Part shown: one piece after another, positions 5,288 through 11,261 of the stretch
How the letters are laid out: each line of letters opens with the position of its first letter
Numbering within the stretch: position 1 is the stretch's first letter
Source: Candidatus Latescibacterota bacterium
GTDB lineage: Bacteria > Latescibacterota > UBA2968 > UBA8231
Direction: 5' to 3'
Assembly: GCA_965200315.1 (NCBI GenBank)
Contig: OZ241362.1
Location: forward strand, 4,576,001-4,640,000
Length of the DNA stretch: 64,000 nucleotides
Program-made: the position numbers and the translations under genes
The notes under the pieces: generated by a model
Told to the model about the DNA's origin: nothing
The model's database searches: none
Seen by the model: only the letters and a program-made list of their open reading frames with translations

Positions 5288-5830
5288 TTAGGCCGTCGGT
5301 TGGAGGCGGTCGGCAAACTTCTGGCGAAACGCCTGCATCTTGGGATCGATGACTAGCGCGCAGTAGGGCTGGTTGGGATTGAGCCGGTAGTAGTTTTGGT
5401 GGTACGCCTCGGCCGGCCAAAAGGCACTGGCGGGCGCGATCTCGGTCACGATCGGATCAGCCCAAAGGTCGCTCGTGTCCGCAGCGGCTCTGGCGGCGGC
5501 CGCCGCCGCTTGCTGCTCGGGGCGGTGGTAGAAAATCACCGACCGGTACTGAGTACCGCGATCCGCGCCTTGGCGGTTGAGCGTGGTGGGATCGTGCGTA
5601 CGCCAGAAGACGTAGAGCAAGTAGTCAAAGCTGATGACCTCGGGATCGAATTGCAGTTGCACGACCTCAGCGTGACCAGTCCGACCACTGCAAACGGCCT
5701 CGTACGTAGGTTTTTCCAACGCGCCGCCCATATAGCCAGAGACCGCGCTGGCAACGCCCCGCAGGTCTTGGTACACGGCTTCGACGCACCAGAAGCAACC
5801 CGCGCCCAGAGTGGTAGTTTCCAAACTCAT
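5288..5830 (-). CDS. msrA: Peptide-methionine (S)-S-oxide reductase
   Basis: GAGCFWC, GRTGHAEVV, HDPTTLNRQGADRGTQYRS, AEAYHQNY; true start MSLETTT overlaps the upstream stop. Confidence 0.96.
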   Translation of the reverse strand: MSLETTTLGAGCFWCVEAVYQDLRGVASAVSGYMGGALEKPTYEAVCSGRTGHAEVVQLQFDPEVISFDYLLYVFWRTHDPTTLNRQGADRGTQYRSVIFYHRPEQQAAAAAARAAADTSDLWADPIVTEIAPASAFWPAEAYHQNYYRLNPNQPYCALVIDPKMQAFRQKFADRLQPTA

Positions 5831-6027
5831 CCTCCATCCTCCATCCACTTCTTGTATTGCCGCCACGTGCCGCCCTTGGGGTGCTTCTCTAGGGTGTGAT
5901 GGACCCGCTCGTGGGCTCGATGGTTGTCCTCGACGAGACGGCCCACCCCGCGCCCTTGGGCCCGGTGGACGAACCAGAAAACTAGCGAGAAGAAGATCAG
6001 ATATAGCCCTTTGCCAAAGTATTCCAT
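5827..6027 (-). CDS. Small single-TM hypothetical protein, translationally coupled to msrA
   Basis: GGAGG RBS, hydrophobic N-terminal segment, ATGA overlap with msrA. Confidence 0.55.
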   Translation of the reverse strand: MEYFGKGLYLIFFSLVFWFVHRAQGRGVGRLVEDNHRAHERVHHTLEKHPKGGTWRQYKKWMEDGG

Positions 6028-6137
6028 AGCATCCTCCAAACGACTTTAAGGTAGGAACCTCAGCAGTCCCCGGCAACGCGCTCCGCTTGACCGGGGCAGG
6101 CGGTCGCTTACCTTGAAACGCAGAAAGGAGACTACCC

Positions 6138-7058
6138 ATGTTGTACAGAGCATTTGGCCGAACGGGCTGGCAGGTCTCGGCCATCGGTTTGGGAACCTGG
6201 AACATCGGCAACCAATGGGGGCCTATCGACGAGGCCACAGCTTGGGATACGGTGCGCACGGCTTTTGACTGCGGCGTCAATCTCTTCGACGCGGCCGAGT
6301 CCTACGGCACGCCCAACGGGCTGTCGGAAGAGCGGTTGGGACGCGCCTTGGCCGGCATCCGGCACCAAGTTTTTGTCGTCAGCAAAATCGGCAATTGGGG
6401 AGCGCGCACCGGGCAGGGCGTGCCCAAAACCACGGTCGATATGATCCGCCTGTGCGCCCACGCCTCCCTGCACAGGCTGCGCAGCGACTGGCACGACGTG
6501 CTGCTGTGCCACGAAGGCAACATCGACGATCCATCCATCTACTTGGATGCCTTTGCTGCGCTCGTTGAGGAAGGGCGGCTGCGGGCCTTTGGCATTTCGA
6601 CCGATAGCCTAGCAGTGCTAAAGCACTTCAACGCCCGAGGCGATTGCTCGGTGGTGGAGATAGACTATTCGCTGGTCAACCTCCAAGCCGAAGCCGAGCT
6701 TTTGCCCTATTGCCAAGAACACGGCATTGCCGTACTGGTGAGGGGGCCGCTGGCCAAGGGGCTTTTGTCTGGCCGCTACACGAAAGAGTCGGTTTTTACC
6801 GACGAAGTGCGGCAGCCCCTCAACGCCGGCGAGCCACAGCGCGCCGAATTCGAGGCCAAGCTGGCACACGTCAAGCGCCTCGCCGAGGTCGTCGCGCCCG
6901 GCGAGGCCATGGTGGAAAAATCCCTCCAGTACGTCATTTCCCATCCAGCCGCGCCAGTGGCTATCCCCGGTGCCAAGTCAGCCGCCCAAGCCCGCGCCAA
7001 CGCCGCCGGAGCGCAACTTTTGCCCGCTGACGAAATAGAAAGGTTGCGGGGAATATGA
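6138..7058 (+). CDS. Aldo/keto reductase
   Basis: IGLGTW, FDAAESYG, VVSK, PLAKGLLSG, IPGAKS motifs; AAGGAG RBS. Confidence 0.93.
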   Translation: MLYRAFGRTGWQVSAIGLGTWNIGNQWGPIDEATAWDTVRTAFDCGVNLFDAAESYGTPNGLSEERLGRALAGIRHQVFVVSKIGNWGARTGQGVPKTTVDMIRLCAHASLHRLRSDWHDVLLCHEGNIDDPSIYLDAFAALVEEGRLRAFGISTDSLAVLKHFNARGDCSVVEIDYSLVNLQAEAELLPYCQEHGIAVLVRGPLAKGLLSGRYTKESVFTDEVRQPLNAGEPQRAEFEAKLAHVKRLAEVVAPGEAMVEKSLQYVISHPAAPVAIPGAKSAAQARANAAGAQLLPADEIERLRGI

Positions 7059-7104: not shown

Positions 7105-7965
7105 ATGACCTTAGTCGGCAGCGGAGCATTCACCTATGCAGTGCAGCAGGATTGGTTTGAATTGCCGGAAGGCTGGCGCTTTGGCTGGGTTCCAGCGGTC
7201 GCTTGCGATTCCGAAGATCGGGTCTATGTGTACAGCCGCAGCGAGCGTCCCATGGTCGTCTTCGACCGCGAGGGGTGCTTTGTCGCCTCGTGGGGCGAAG
7301 AGGTGCTAAAGGACGCCCACGGCATCTTTATCGACGACCGCGACCAAATCTGGTGCATCGAGCGCGAAACCCACTGCGTGCGCCAGTTCACCCGCGACGG
7401 CGAGCTGCTTTTGACCTTGGGAACGCCAGACCAAGAAGGCGCGGAGGGCCAGCCCTTCCGGCTGCCTACCGACTTAGCGCTCGACGCCGACGGCTATATC
7501 TACGTATCCGACGGCTACGGCAACGCCTGCATCCACAGGTATGCACCCGACGGCGAATTCATCAAGACGTGGGGCCGCCCGGGCAGCGGCCCGGGGGAAT
7601 TCGACCTGCCCCACTGCGTGCGCGTGGACCAACGCGGGCGGCTGCTGGTGGCCGACCGCGCCAACAACCGCATCCAGTTTTTCGACCTCGACGGCAACTA
7701 CCTAGAGGAATGGGGCGGCTTTCACCATCCCGATACCATTTTCCTCGACGGGGATACGGTCTATGTCGCGGAGCTCGACCAGCGGGTGAGCATTCTCAAC
7801 CTCGACGGCGAATGGCTCGCTCAATGGGGCTCGGGCGAGCGCATCGACGCACCGGGAGAATTCCTCGGCTGCCCCCACGGCATTTGGATGGATTCCCGCG
7901 GCGACCTCTACGTGGGGGAAGTGCAAACCGACCATCGCATTCAGAAGTTCGTGCGGCAACACTAA
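7105..7965 (+). CDS. NHL-repeat beta-propeller protein (PAL-like)
   Basis: Repeated F..P.D/HG/V..D..G.IYV.D motifs; YVSDGYGN; VADRANNRIQFF. Confidence 0.88.
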   Translation: MTLVGSGAFTYAVQQDWFELPEGWRFGWVPAVACDSEDRVYVYSRSERPMVVFDREGCFVASWGEEVLKDAHGIFIDDRDQIWCIERETHCVRQFTRDGELLLTLGTPDQEGAEGQPFRLPTDLALDADGYIYVSDGYGNACIHRYAPDGEFIKTWGRPGSGPGEFDLPHCVRVDQRGRLLVADRANNRIQFFDLDGNYLEEWGGFHHPDTIFLDGDTVYVAELDQRVSILNLDGEWLAQWGSGERIDAPGEFLGCPHGIWMDSRGDLYVGEVQTDHRIQKFVRQH

Positions 7966-7976
7966 GGAGGTTGGTG

Positions 7977-9116
7977 ATGAACAAATTTTTGTTGCATCTA
8001 ACGGCTTTAGCGGTGTTGGGAGCCTCTGCCCTAAACGCCCAATCCCCGCAAGTAGGCGATCCGGCCCCCGGTTTCGTCTTGGACCGGCTCGATGGCGGCC
8101 AAGCAGCCTTGAGCGACTTCGCGGGACAAGTGGTGCTGATTTTTTTCGCCGGCTATGGCTGAAGTGCCTGTCTCTCGCGTGCCGAGAGCTTTGAAGAAAT
8201 CTGGCAGGAATTTGCCGACGAGCGCTTTGCCGCCTTGGTTGTCGATGCTTGGGACGGCACTGCGGCACAAGTGCGGGCCCGCTGGCGCTTAGCCAAGGGG
8301 GTTACGATGCCCCTCTTGCTGAACGCCTCCCAGATGACAATCGAGTACGGGCAAACCTACCAGACCTTTGCCATCATCGACCACGAGGGCATCTTCCGCT
8401 TCAAGACTAATTTCCTGATACCCATGAACGACCTCCGCGACGAGGTGATGCTGGCTCTGGCCGATTTGCCTCCCATCGAGGAGGAAGCGGACGAAGTGGA
8501 GGAAGCAGAGGAAACGGTCGAAACGGAGGAAGTGGTCGAAGCGGTCGAAGCGGTCGAAGCGGACGAAGCGGACGAAGCGGACGAAGCGGACGAAGTGGAG
8601 GAAGCAGAGGAAGCGGACGAAGCGGAGGAAGCGGTCGAGGCTGAGGAAACGGAGGAAGCGGTCGAAGTGGTCGAAGTGGTCGAAGCGGTCGAAGCGGAGG
8701 AAACGGCCAACAGCTTCGACGACATGTTTGAACACCTCGATAGGCAAGCGGAGCAAGCGGAGCAAGCGGAGGAAACGGAGGAAACGGACGAAGTGGTGGA
8801 GACGGTGGTGGAGGCGTTTGATCAGGCGTCTGTCCCCCAAGCCTTTTCGCTAGCCCAGAACGCGCCCAATCCGTTCAACGGCGAGACTGTGATCCGCTTT
8901 GCGCTGCCGCAACCGAGCCAAGCCGAGCTGGCGATCTACAACCTGCTCGGCCAGCCAGTGGCTGTGCTCGTACAGGGGCCTAGCGCGGCCGGGACATTCT
9001 CGGTGCGCTGGGACGGCCGCGACCAAATGGGACGAGCGGTGACCAGCGGAGTGTATCTCTACCAGTTGCGAGCCGGCGAGTACACAGAAGTCCGCAAGCT
9101 GCTGCTGCTCCAGTAG
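7977..9116 (+). CDS. Putative exported selenoprotein: signal peptide + AhpC/TSA-type redoxin (UxxC, Sec62) + acidic repeat stalk + FlgD-Ig/T9SS-like C-terminal domain
   Basis: TAAGGAGG RBS; MNKFLLHLTALAVLGASALNA signal; VGDPAPGFVL..LDG...LSDFAGQVVLIFF then TGA(8160-62)-S-A-C, in frame with ORF 8235..9116; SECIS-like hairpin just downstream; C-terminal NPFN...IYNLLGQ...WDGRD...SGVYLYQL...KLLLLQ. Confidence 0.85.
8170..8189 (+). promoter_or_regulatory. Bacterial SECIS-like stem-loop
   Basis: CTCTCG(8172-77)/CGAGAG(8183-88) perfect stem, 5-nt loop CGTGC with G second followed by U, possible bulged U at 8171, loop starts ~16 nt after the UGA. Confidence 0.7.
8478..8816 (+). repeat. Coding minisatellite of degenerate 9-nt units (GAAGCGGAC/GAAGCGGTC/GAAACGGAG) encoding E-[AVT]-[EDV]
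   Basis: Directly visible tandem array; translates to EADEADEAD/EAVEAVE/ETEE. Confidence 0.9.
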
Positions 9117-9162: not shown

Positions 9163-10686
9163 TCAGAAGAAGCGGTTGAGCAGCCGGACTTCGACGCCGG
9201 TAAACCCTAGCACCTCATAGCAGATGCCAGCCGTGCAAGCTAGCCCCGAGCGGCGCTGGCCGGCGAAGACGTTGAGGATGTGGCCCTCGCCAATGTCGGC
9301 CCCAATGTTGAGGCCCCGCCACCACGTGATGCCAGAGGGATCGGCTCCGGTTTCCAACTCGTCGGAGGTGCGCTGGACCTGCACGGCGGCGGAGAGGCTG
9401 GGGGCGCGGTGGACCGCTAGGGCATAGTATTGGTTGGTGTAAGGAAGTGCTAGGTCGCCAAATCGCCGATCGACGTCTTGAAATTGCGCGTCGAACTCGA
9501 AGGTGTAGGACCCGTCTGGCAACCACTCCCAGTGCGTGCCCAAGAGGCGGCTTTTGTCGTCGAGGAGAATCTGGTTGTGGCTAAAGTCGGCAAAAAGCTG
9601 CACATCGGCACTTTGGCCCACGGGCGAATCCATCTGCACAAAGAATTCGCGCAGGACGTTGTCGTCGGCGGTGCCCGAATCGCGGCGGCGCGTGGCGCGG
9701 GTCGCATTGGCAATGAGGATTTGGCCGCTGGGTAGGACATAACTCAGTTCGGCTTGGTAGCCCTGCTCGTCGTCGGCGAGCACATCGTGCGTGATGCGAT
9801 TGAGGAGATAGGCCGAGTGTTCTCGGATTAAGGGCGGAGGGTCGTTGATGTGTTCGAGGGCAAAGTCCTCGTAGTCTTTGTATTCCAAGCTCAAGCCCCA
9901 CGGCCCGGATGCCCAAGTGGCCGCTAGGTACAGGGCGCGGCCCAAACTGCGGTCGAGCGAGAAGAAGCGGTCGAATGCCACATCGCGCTGAGCGTACTCG
10001 CCTTGGAGATCGGCATACACTCCGTTGAGGCCGAGGCGGGCCAGCAAAGGCGCGAGCCGCCAGCGTGCATTAAAGGCCGCGCTTGTTTCTTGCCGCCTGC
10101 CGGCTGGGTAGCGGATGGCGCTAACGCCAACGTCGAAATGCGGATGCGGCTTGAGCTGGAGCGATCCAGCGTGGAGCACGTCTGGACGTCGCTCAATCCC
10201 CTCCAAGCCGGGCGGCAGATTGCTGTTGATCGGCGCACCGCGCAACAGCAGCACTTCGGCCCGCTTGGCTCGGTAGCGCACCTGAACGCCGTCGAGATCG
10301 CGTACGATCTGGTAGCGACGGCGAGCACCCCGCTCCTCAGTGATGACGCCGGGCAGCTCAAAGGCGTGGAGGAGCAAGCCGCTGCCGATGATGGTGTAGA
10401 AATTGCCAACAGTAGCTTCAAAACCACTCCGGCGGTAGGAGGCAGAGCGCTGGAGGAGTTGGCCGTAGTTGCGATTGGTTGCACTAGAGCCAAAAGTCTC
10501 GCCGCGGACCCCGACTTGGAGGTCAGCGAGTGCATAGTCGAGGCTGAACTGGTGGTAGATCGTCCGCAGGTCGCTGGGCTTTGTGCCGGGCAGATTGCCG
10601 ACTTGGCCTTCGGTCAGAGCCGAAAGACGCAGCTCGGCTTGGAGAGGGGCGTCCAGCAGCAGTGTAAGTGCAAAAACGAAGCGCAT
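9163..10686 (-). CDS. DUF6029-like outer-membrane beta-barrel protein
   Basis: Signal peptide, alternating beta-strand pattern, GNFYTIIGSGLLL, LEYKDY, NDPPPL, C-terminal GQRRSGLACTAGIC and terminal Phe. Confidence 0.75.
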   Translation of the reverse strand: MRFVFALTLLLDAPLQAELRLSALTEGQVGNLPGTKPSDLRTIYHQFSLDYALADLQVGVRGETFGSSATNRNYGQLLQRSASYRRSGFEATVGNFYTIIGSGLLLHAFELPGVITEERGARRRYQIVRDLDGVQVRYRAKRAEVLLLRGAPINSNLPPGLEGIERRPDVLHAGSLQLKPHPHFDVGVSAIRYPAGRRQETSAAFNARWRLAPLLARLGLNGVYADLQGEYAQRDVAFDRFFSLDRSLGRALYLAATWASGPWGLSLEYKDYEDFALEHINDPPPLIREHSAYLLNRITHDVLADDEQGYQAELSYVLPSGQILIANATRATRRRDSGTADDNVLREFFVQMDSPVGQSADVQLFADFSHNQILLDDKSRLLGTHWEWLPDGSYTFEFDAQFQDVDRRFGDLALPYTNQYYALAVHRAPSLSAAVQVQRTSDELETGADPSGITWWRGLNIGADIGEGHILNVFAGQRRSGLACTAGICYEVLGFTGVEVRLLNRFF

Positions 10687-10766: not shown

Positions 10767-11261
10767 ATGAAACCAATTTTCGCATGGGCAACCTGCTTGC
10801 TGCTCGTCGCCGCGGCTCGCGCCGAAAAAGCACCGCAACTCGTGTTGGAAAACCTCGATGGATCGACCTTTTTGCTGGTGGAGGCGCTCAAAAAAGGGCC
10901 GGTGGTCTTCGACTTCTGGGCGACTTGGTGCAAGCCCTGTATCAAGAGTCTGCCCAAGGTCCAAGCCCTATCCGAAAAATACGCCGAGCGCGGCGTCCAA
11001 GTGCTGACGATCAACGTCGATGGCCCGAGAAACCTGCCCAAAGTGCGGCCCTTTATGCAGCGCCACAAGCTCAAACTGCCGGTTTTGCTCGACAAGACCA
11101 ACGAGGTGCTCAAGCAATTTCACCTATCCGGCGTCCCGGCGACCCTGATTATTGCGGCTGACGGGACGGTGTGGTACAAGCATCAGGGGTATCGGCCCGG
11201 CGACGAGCAGAAGCTCAAGGCCAAACTAGACGAATTGCTCGGCCCCCCAGAGGACGAATAA
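10767..11261 (+). CDS. TlpA-family thiol-disulfide reductase (exported)
   Basis: Signal peptide, DFWATWCKPC, GVP cis-Pro loop. Confidence 0.92.
   Translation: MKPIFAWATCLLLVAAARAEKAPQLVLENLDGSTFLLVEALKKGPVVFDFWATWCKPCIKSLPKVQALSEKYAERGVQVLTINVDGPRNLPKVRPFMQRHKLKLPVLLDKTNEVLKQFHLSGVPATLIIAADGTVWYKHQGYRPGDEQKLKAKLDELLGPPEDE

Follow-up and report, generated by a model that had tools for sequence, protein, structure and literature searches.

A gene at positions 7977-9116 (+) of a 64,000-nucleotide stretch of DNA from a Candidatus Latescibacterota bacterium (contig OZ241362.1, positions 4,576,001 to 4,640,000; the whole stretch is referred to here as the window) most likely combines a selenocysteine (Sec) active site with a type IX secretion system (T9SS) tail, a combination found throughout the phylum and missed by public annotation. 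The gene is a single frame of 379 codons closed by TAG (9114-9116), and its sole interruption is a TGA at 8160-8162, codon 62. An earlier note on this DNA, made from the letters of the sequence, had proposed a hidden exported UxxC selenoprotein with a T9SS-type sorting domain, and the comparative evidence described below supports those core claims. That the gene is a real but mis-annotated selenoprotein, the Sec form of a "redoxin plus T9SS tail" family, is in our judgment highly probable. The entire mechanism, including export by the T9SS, is also probable, though we hold it less firmly. Weighing on the other side, both the selenium in the protein and its secretion are inferred from sequence.

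How does such a locus appear to a gene caller? Under translation table 11 it falls into an upstream open reading frame (ORF) ending at 8162 and a same-frame, 293-amino-acid ORF at 8235-9116 that begins at an internal TTG (8235). The split at the TGA, with both halves in one frame, had been pointed out in the earlier note and is borne out by both the frame and the ORF list. Database entries have met the same fate: all 22 close proteins (E<=1e-20) are truncated calls of 209-258 amino acids that start at the equivalents of residue 75 or later and so lack both the signal peptide and the active site, and three of them bear no other name than "T9SS type A sorting domain-containing protein." The complete gene, whose layout is identical in the orthologs, begins at an ATG (7977-7979) that lies 6 nt 3' of a Shine-Dalgarno sequence, AAGGAGG (7964-7970, +), which shares bases with the stop codon of the NHL-repeat gene before it. 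By reading, AAGGAGG or a near variant precedes 14 of 16 other ortholog starts, and two orthologs differ. Residues 1-21 (7977-8039, +) are predicted to form a signal peptide of the Sec-translocon type. By inspection, the N terminus, MNKFLLHLTALAVLGASALNA/Q, is hydrophobic, ends in ALNA/Q, and has no lipobox, and an AlphaFold2 (AF2) model built from a 43-sequence alignment (mean predicted local distance difference test score [pLDDT], 80.6) places a helix over residues 3-19. The strong ribosome-binding site and the signal peptide that had been noticed upstream of the TGA thus both hold up, the latter by inspection.

The TGA is strongly conserved. A search of 40 relatives' genomes recovered same-genus orthologs (73-81% identity), and 17/17 contain exactly one in-frame TGA. 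Paralogs (40-49% identity) and homologs of three other families (26-40%) also have a single in-frame TGA. In 40/40 related loci inspected (42 genes, with identity down to 26%), this codon falls within the same column, G[YFWH]xUxxC, which argues that the split is not a chance event. The pattern extends to the phylum: in an even sample of 151 genomes searched at E<=1e-10, 94 had a match, and among the 141 matches listed, 127 had exactly one TGA, one had a TGA plus a TAG, one had a TAA, and 12 had no in-frame stop, so that the TGA is kept in 128. Whether relatives carry Cys or TGA at this site had been left as a check, and the answer is that they keep TGA rather than TGT or TGC. Outside this phylum the column is Cys. 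Among the best 150 matches from 1.84 billion representatives, the Sec column is occupied by Cys in 140, Ala in 3, and Tyr in 1, the other six being fragments that start or stop at the TGA. One same-genus genome has no full ortholog; the sole match there, at 4576017-4576151 of its own contig, spans 45 residues (67% identity to residues 8-56) within a 91-amino-acid open frame and may be a decayed copy.

Decoding UGA as Sec requires dedicated machinery, and the genome bearing the window, a single 5.36-Mb contig, encodes it. SelA (562 bits), SelB (345 bits), SelD (371 bits), and tRNA-Sec (71.9 bits) all score over their curated cut-offs; ARAGORN calls the tRNA as SeC, with anticodon tca. The selD gene itself carries an in-frame TGA within GGUASK. 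The earlier note would have given up the idea had the genome lacked this machinery or had close relatives all carried TGT or TGC; the complete selA, selB, selC, and selD set and the retained TGA both favor a selenoprotein. The selD gene lies at contig positions 2481770-2482693 (+), and its one in-frame TGA is followed about 35 nt 3' by a hairpin with a GGUC loop. The same genome also holds a second hidden selenoprotein, at contig positions 1453458-1453991 (-), a 178-amino-acid, lipoprotein-type redoxin with the lipobox LVGC and the motif FFUGSC. Downstream of its TGA comes a 7-bp hairpin whose loop is AGGUG, and its best NCBIfam matches, to thiol peroxidase, ResA, and SelL-related models, all fall below the cut-offs.

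Could the TGA instead be a nonsense mutation or an assembly error, leaving a pseudogene or two separate genes? Gene callers do split the locus, and the 22 truncated database proteins all start after the TGA. Yet the TGA occupies the same catalytic column in the 17 orthologs and in the 128 listed phylum matches, with both flanking frames intact, and a split there would sever the thioredoxin fold at its active site. The same base also appears in four independent run assemblies, three of them from RNA libraries and one from a DNA run, all under one study code; their contigs match window positions 7700-8584, TGA included, with zero differences, and the TGA is therefore no assembly slip. One sequencing run that contains this stretch is labeled sponge metagenome. 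Being assembled contigs, the RNA-library sequences weigh less than they might for an expressed gene, for they are no proof of transcription, transcript ends, or expression level. Even so, we consider an error or a nonsense mutation extremely improbable. A subtler proposal is that a standard amino acid (Trp, Gly, or Cys) is inserted at the TGA, through reassignment of the code or leaky termination, and in silico data on a single codon cannot separate Sec from other read-through. The 16 complete ortholog genes speak against this, however, in that they end at the same conserved C terminus with TGA in 5 cases and TAG in 11; since TGA terminates 5/16, it has not been reassigned in the genus. Moreover, the Sec decoding set is complete, SelD itself has a classic Sec codon, and the residue aligned in homologs is Cys, the standard partner in Sec/Cys exchanges. 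Read-through to a standard amino acid is, in our estimation, very improbable.

Bacterial Sec codons are expected to be accompanied by a selenocysteine insertion sequence (SECIS), and a candidate hairpin is found at 8172-8188 (+), starting 9 nt 3' of the UGA, with the stem CUCUCG/CGAGAG and the loop CGUGC. These 17 nt are identical in 18/18 genes of the ortholog group (group A), one loop base excepted, and codons without a synonymous variant are concentrated here, with 7 of 9 after the TGA compared to 10 of 39 upstream (Fisher p=0.006). The paralog group has a different hairpin in the same register, UCGCGG-AGG-CCGCGA, in which one U-A pair is replaced by G-C in 7 sequences and two pairs become G-U. 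Across 21 distinct sequences, 95.2% of cells in the 6 pairs are paired, versus 22-50% when the partner strand is slid. Two of the hairpin pairs are altered on both sides, giving a covariation score of 0.21 versus 0.07 in shuffles, with 0/500 shuffles as high. The hairpins of distant families are longer, lie a few bases more to the 3' side, and are built around a GGGUCC core, and the Sec codons of selD and the lipoprotein redoxin in the same genome likewise precede hairpins with GU in the loop.

Several observations temper this picture. The stem is small, at 6 bp, and its folding energy of -7.2 kcal/mol is ordinary for a G+C-rich gene, in which 40 of 131 other windows fold equally well or better; the 76-nt region has a folding z-score of -0.30, and Rfam at its gathering thresholds has 0 matches in the whole 64,000-nt stretch. 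The compensatory changes amount essentially to one evolutionary event, the divergence of orthologs and paralogs. In the distant families the stems are offset from one another by 1-3 nt, so that an ungapped alignment retains no more than 3 consensus pairs, and the conservation of GGGUCC could be explained equally well by a conserved Gly-Pro. Folding energy was set aside as a line of SECIS evidence, since the hairpin window is unexceptional in 38/42 genes and ranks 0 or 1 among 131 windows in the other four. As the covariation comes down to about one event, we grade the hairpin, from sequence comparison, as a likely SECIS and not more.

What kind of enzyme would the Sec residue serve? Residues ~25-160 (8049-8456, +) form a TlpA/ResA-like, thioredoxin-fold redoxin domain, as judged by Pfam, matches to solved structures, AF2, and Foldseek. 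Pfam AhpC-TSA (PF00578) scores 47.7 bits (cut-off, 26) and Redoxin (PF08534) scores 37.2 (cut-off, 26.6) over residues 25-141. The local motif around the TGA is FFAGYG-U-SAC, and when phmmer aligns the protein with solved structures, U pairs with the leading Cys of CxxC in 3kcm, 2ls5, and 4hqs, and ResA is matched as well. The earlier placement of the TGA (8160-8162, +) at the first position of a thioredoxin-fold CxxC is therefore correct, and ortholog and phylum conservation together with the CxxC alignment assign it as Sec, U62. A TGT at 8169-8171 (+) encodes Cys65, the predicted resolving partner of U62, in a column that is invariant in the 43-sequence alignment. In the AF2 model, pLDDT exceeds 90 both for the redoxin (~residues 21-170) and for a C-terminal beta-sandwich (~290-379), and a helix begins at residue 63, directly after U62.

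The earlier note had set the domain beside AhpC/TSA-like selenoproteins, and the Pfam AhpC-TSA model does score over its cut-off. The fold, on the other hand, is TlpA/ResA-like and not that of a peroxiredoxin. Foldseek gives target-normalised TM-scores of 0.90 for 4nmu, 0.89 for 1st9, 0.85 for 3kcm, and 0.81 for Etrx2, compared to a lower 0.74-0.77 for the peroxiredoxins Bcp and AhpE. The peroxiredoxin signature PxxxTxxC is also not present, the sequence being IFFAGYGU, with G at -3 and I at -7 from U62. Nor does the domain belong to a named subfamily: the NCBIfam ResA model (NF002854) scores 32.2 bits versus a cut-off of 170, and neither the TlpA nor the DsbE models appear among its matches at E<=0.1. 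Because the folds match ResA and TlpA types but the curated models are far below their cut-offs, the redoxin is TlpA-like and lies outside the curated ResA, TlpA, and DsbE subfamilies.

The other end of the protein carries the second half of the finding. The last 85 residues, from NAPNPFN onward (8859-9113, +), form a T9SS type A C-terminal sorting domain according to TIGR04183, PF13860, and the modeled beta-sandwich. In the protein scan TIGR04183 scores 39.4 bits (cut-off, 23) over residues 297-376, ending 3 residues before the stop, and PF13860 scores 39.2 bits on the same domain. The earlier suggestion that this C terminus is a type A sorting-type signal accordingly stands, with the TIGR04183 match located at the extreme C terminus. 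The tail after NAPNPFN is 85 residues long in all 17 complete group A genes. In the genome scan it scores 42.3 bits with TIGR04183, the second best of 56 matches, 50 of which are over the cut-off.

T9SS genes had been named as something to look for in the genome. Here the result is divided. PorU (615 bits; cut-off, 420) and SprA (497 bits, or 622 when a neighboring in-frame match is added; cut-off, 200) are clearly over their cut-offs. A PorV-like gene directly adjoins porU and covers positions 28-352 of the 367 in the model. The porU and PorV-like pair lies at contig positions 1598517-1602835 (-), adjacent as in Bacteroidota. Against a complete system, the PorV-like match reaches 150 bits and is below its cut-off of 250, the best GldK match in the genome search is weak and partial, at 68 bits versus a cut-off of 350, and GldM was not found in the genome with either TIGR03517 or PF12081, the TIGR model being silent in every control genome as well. 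The search for the motor covered GldK and GldM of the GldKLMN set. As the motor models derive from Bacteroidota and their controls are weak, the motor is best described as not found rather than absent.

Between the two folded domains is an acidic, low-complexity linker, residues ~163-294 (8463-8858, +), delimited by Tandem Repeats Finder, AF2, and ortholog lengths. Two arrays of 9-bp tandem repeats lie within it, one at 8480-8706 (25.2 copies) and the other at 8744-8788 (5 copies). AF2 gives a pLDDT below 50 at residues 185-239, followed by a helix of middling confidence at 239-265. The earlier note had treated a long acidic stalk as part of the design of the protein, which is not sustained: six of the 17 complete group A genes encode 351-381 residues and eleven encode only 273-283. 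The long linker is thus a variable insert of tandem repeats and not a defining feature, because it is short in 11/17 complete orthologs. Amid the acidic repeats, window positions 8691-8771 (residues 239-265) encode a hydrophobic motif of the type F-G/D-N-M/L-F-D-L/I-F/L-D, corresponding to the modeled helix. This motif is common to all six long-linker orthologs, and the whole insert is missing from the eleven with short linkers.

Taken together, these parts suggest the following mechanism. The gene would be expressed as one 379-residue preprotein, with SelB and Sec-tRNA(Sec), recruited by the hairpin at 8172-8188, reading UGA-62 as selenocysteine. The signal peptide would route the chain through the Sec translocon, and residues 25-160 would fold as a TlpA/ResA-type domain in the periplasm. 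There, the selenol/thiol pair U62-S-A-C65 is postulated to cycle via a selenenylsulfide. The last 85 residues would deliver the protein to SprA, the type IX translocon, after which PorU would cut the tail and then either tether the enzyme on the cell surface or free it, with the acidic tandem-repeat linker presumably acting as a flexible spacer of variable length. Most likely, the enzyme works outside the cytoplasm as a reductant of disulfides, sulfenic acids, or peroxides, with substrates in the envelope or the environment, and selenium would raise its reactivity as well as its resistance to irreversible over-oxidation. One difficulty for this scheme is that we know of no electron donor for a surface-exposed redoxin.

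Does the protein really leave the cell by the T9SS? It might be a genuine selenoprotein without being a T9SS cargo, remaining periplasmic like TlpA and ResA and using its C-terminal beta-sandwich for anchoring in the periplasm or at the outer membrane, for binding, or for a divergent form of export. The undetected GldM, the GldK match far below its cut-off, and the subthreshold PorV would fit such a protein, as would the conserved neighbors (described below), which encode a periplasmic TlpA and an outer-membrane barrel. In sister families, too, choice-of-anchor-D repeats with a dockerin-like end stand in place of the tail, so a T9SS is not in itself a requirement of the redoxin. Nevertheless, the TIGR04183 match is over its cut-off at the extreme C terminus, the 85-residue tail is invariant in length, PorU and SprA are clearly present, and some 50 other proteins in the genome share the tail, while the models that fail were built from Bacteroidota and one of them is silent in every control genome. 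A periplasmic, non-cargo selenoprotein is on balance unlikely. A separate question is what the selenol does. It could act mainly as a peroxidase, in the manner of glutathione peroxidase or a peroxiredoxin, against extracellular peroxides rather than as a disulfide reductase. Selenocysteine is typical of peroxide-reducing enzymes, the best Pfam match is AhpC/TSA, Bcp and AhpE are among the Foldseek hits, and the domain and motif are filed under "Prx-like thiol:disulfide oxidoreductase" in review tables (cited below). The closest structures and profiles, though, are those of ResA-, TlpA-, and DsbE-type proteins, in which a helix opens with the CxxC, and the substitutions at -3 and -7 leave no peroxiredoxin signature; a mainly peroxidatic role therefore seems rather doubtful to us.

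How much of this is new? That UxxC selenoproteins of the AhpC/TSA-like type exist, as the earlier note had taken to be established, is confirmed by the tables of two selenoproteome reviews (PMC9312934 and PMC13188914). These list a "Prx-like thiol:disulfide oxidoreductase" (PF00578, UxxC/UxxU), a "Thiol-disulfide isomerase-like protein" (TlpA-like cd02966, UxxC), and, separately, a UGC-type TlpA family. Since these families stand in the review tables, a UxxC selenoprotein of the TlpA/Prx-like type is in itself already known. The tabulated families share with the window gene the Pfam domain, the UxxC at a thioredoxin-fold active site, and the existence of Cys homologs. As far as their descriptions allow a comparison, they consist of the redox domain alone, whereas the window gene adds a signal peptide and a T9SS tail, and "secret..." and "signal peptide" occur 0 times in the two reviews.

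The same architecture with Cys is also familiar. Proteins of ~260 amino acids that couple a redoxin to a T9SS type A sorting domain are found in Bacteroidota, Rhodothermales, and Calditrichota, with 30-43% identity to the window gene in the redox domain. TIGR04183 matches 28/30 of the scanned Cys homologs of this size, and the names they bear include "T9SS C-terminal target domain-containing protein," "redoxin family protein," and "peroxiredoxin." They differ from the window gene in having Cys instead of Sec at the first active-site position and in lacking the long acidic repeat linker. HBP35 of Porphyromonas gingivalis is a thioredoxin-motif T9SS cargo for which in vitro thioredoxin activity and a surface-located, modified form have been described (PMC2907840; see also PMC3120885). 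The likeness here is one of working alike and not of family membership. HBP35 belongs to a different phylum, binds hemin as well, and relies on Cys where the window gene has Sec. Finally, the ResA, TlpA, and DsbE oxidoreductases and the pneumococcal surface thioredoxin Etrx2 are the closest solved folds and have CxxC at the same place; unlike the window gene, they are membrane or lipid anchored, use Cys, and have no sorting tail.

The literature searched contained no Sec redoxin with a T9SS or dockerin-like tail, although supplementary files of selenoproteome studies may list members. Among the papers listed for selenocysteine in this phylum, none looked pertinent, and one has the phylum just in a list of bins. 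The earlier note had not recognized the architecture as a described one. With Cys it is in fact common and annotated, but the Sec version of the redoxin with a T9SS tail appears to be undescribed.

Other families of the same class carry a Sec redoxin followed by choice-of-anchor-D repeats and a dockerin-like end in place of the T9SS tail. These proteins range from 330 to >660 amino acids, with one to five choice-of-anchor-D/OS_HP2-like Ig repeats and a C-terminal pair of DxDxDG repeats, and some are encoded by tandem gene pairs. How often has Sec been exchanged for Cys, or the reverse? In a rapidly built tree combining 42 Sec with 86 Cys domains (135 columns, many unresolved forks, and Cys rows outside 240-300 amino acids excluded), the Sec/Cys state requires 3 changes, a result that describes the clustering only and not the direction of exchange.

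The genes around the selenoprotein gene form a recurrent neighborhood. The selenoprotein gene starts 11 nt after the NHL-repeat gene and faces, in convergent orientation, a gene at 9163-10686 (-) for a 507-amino-acid DUF6029 protein (PF19494, 64 bits), predicted to be an outer-membrane beta-barrel. Divergent from the DUF6029 gene is one at 10767-11261 (+) for a Cys-type, TlpA/ResA-like periplasmic redoxin, which does read FWATWCKPC, as it had been quoted for comparison with the TGA site. This redoxin is a possible redox partner of the Sec redoxin. The order of the NHL-repeat, selenoprotein, and DUF6029 genes is kept in 16 of the 17 ortholog loci. The arrangement differs among the paralog loci: in 5 of 8, the Sec redoxin is on the other side of DUF6029, directly downstream of the TlpA gene, and DUF6029 adjoins a Sec redoxin in one distant-family locus (33% identity) as well. 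The C terminus of the DUF6029 protein is ...NRFF, and DUF6029 has been likened to polysaccharide-porin beta-barrels (PMC9603273). The gene two places upstream of the selenoprotein gene, at 5288-6280 (-), encodes methionine sulfoxide reductase A (PMSR domain, 215 bits). Its ORF is listed as 330 amino acids, a figure that includes a lengthy Arg/Pro-rich N-terminal extension, opened by a TTG start and probably spurious.

What would such a protein mean for these bacteria? The selenoproteins known from bacteria are, in their great majority, redox enzymes of the cytoplasm or periplasm. A selenoenzyme that the T9SS carries to the cell surface or into the medium, or that a dockerin-like end anchors in sister lineages, would bring selenium biochemistry into the extracellular space of an uncultured phylum. 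Across the 94 of 151 sampled genomes with a match, the same mis-annotation likely affects between one and four such genes in each, and a family model would put these Sec redoxins right. The Sec and Cys forms, a pair of otherwise identical architectures, would also offer a natural experiment on what selenium brings to an exported redoxin. More tentatively, and as an idea that may well not hold, the Latescibacterota may routinely export Sec enzymes, by way of one redoxin family that is nearly always Sec, bears either a T9SS tail or Ig-like repeats with a dockerin-like anchor, and is repeatedly found beside a DUF6029 barrel and a periplasmic TlpA. In that case the cell surface would bear a selenium-based redox module, possibly fed electrons across the envelope, and the window gene would encode the first selenoprotein cargo of a T9SS.

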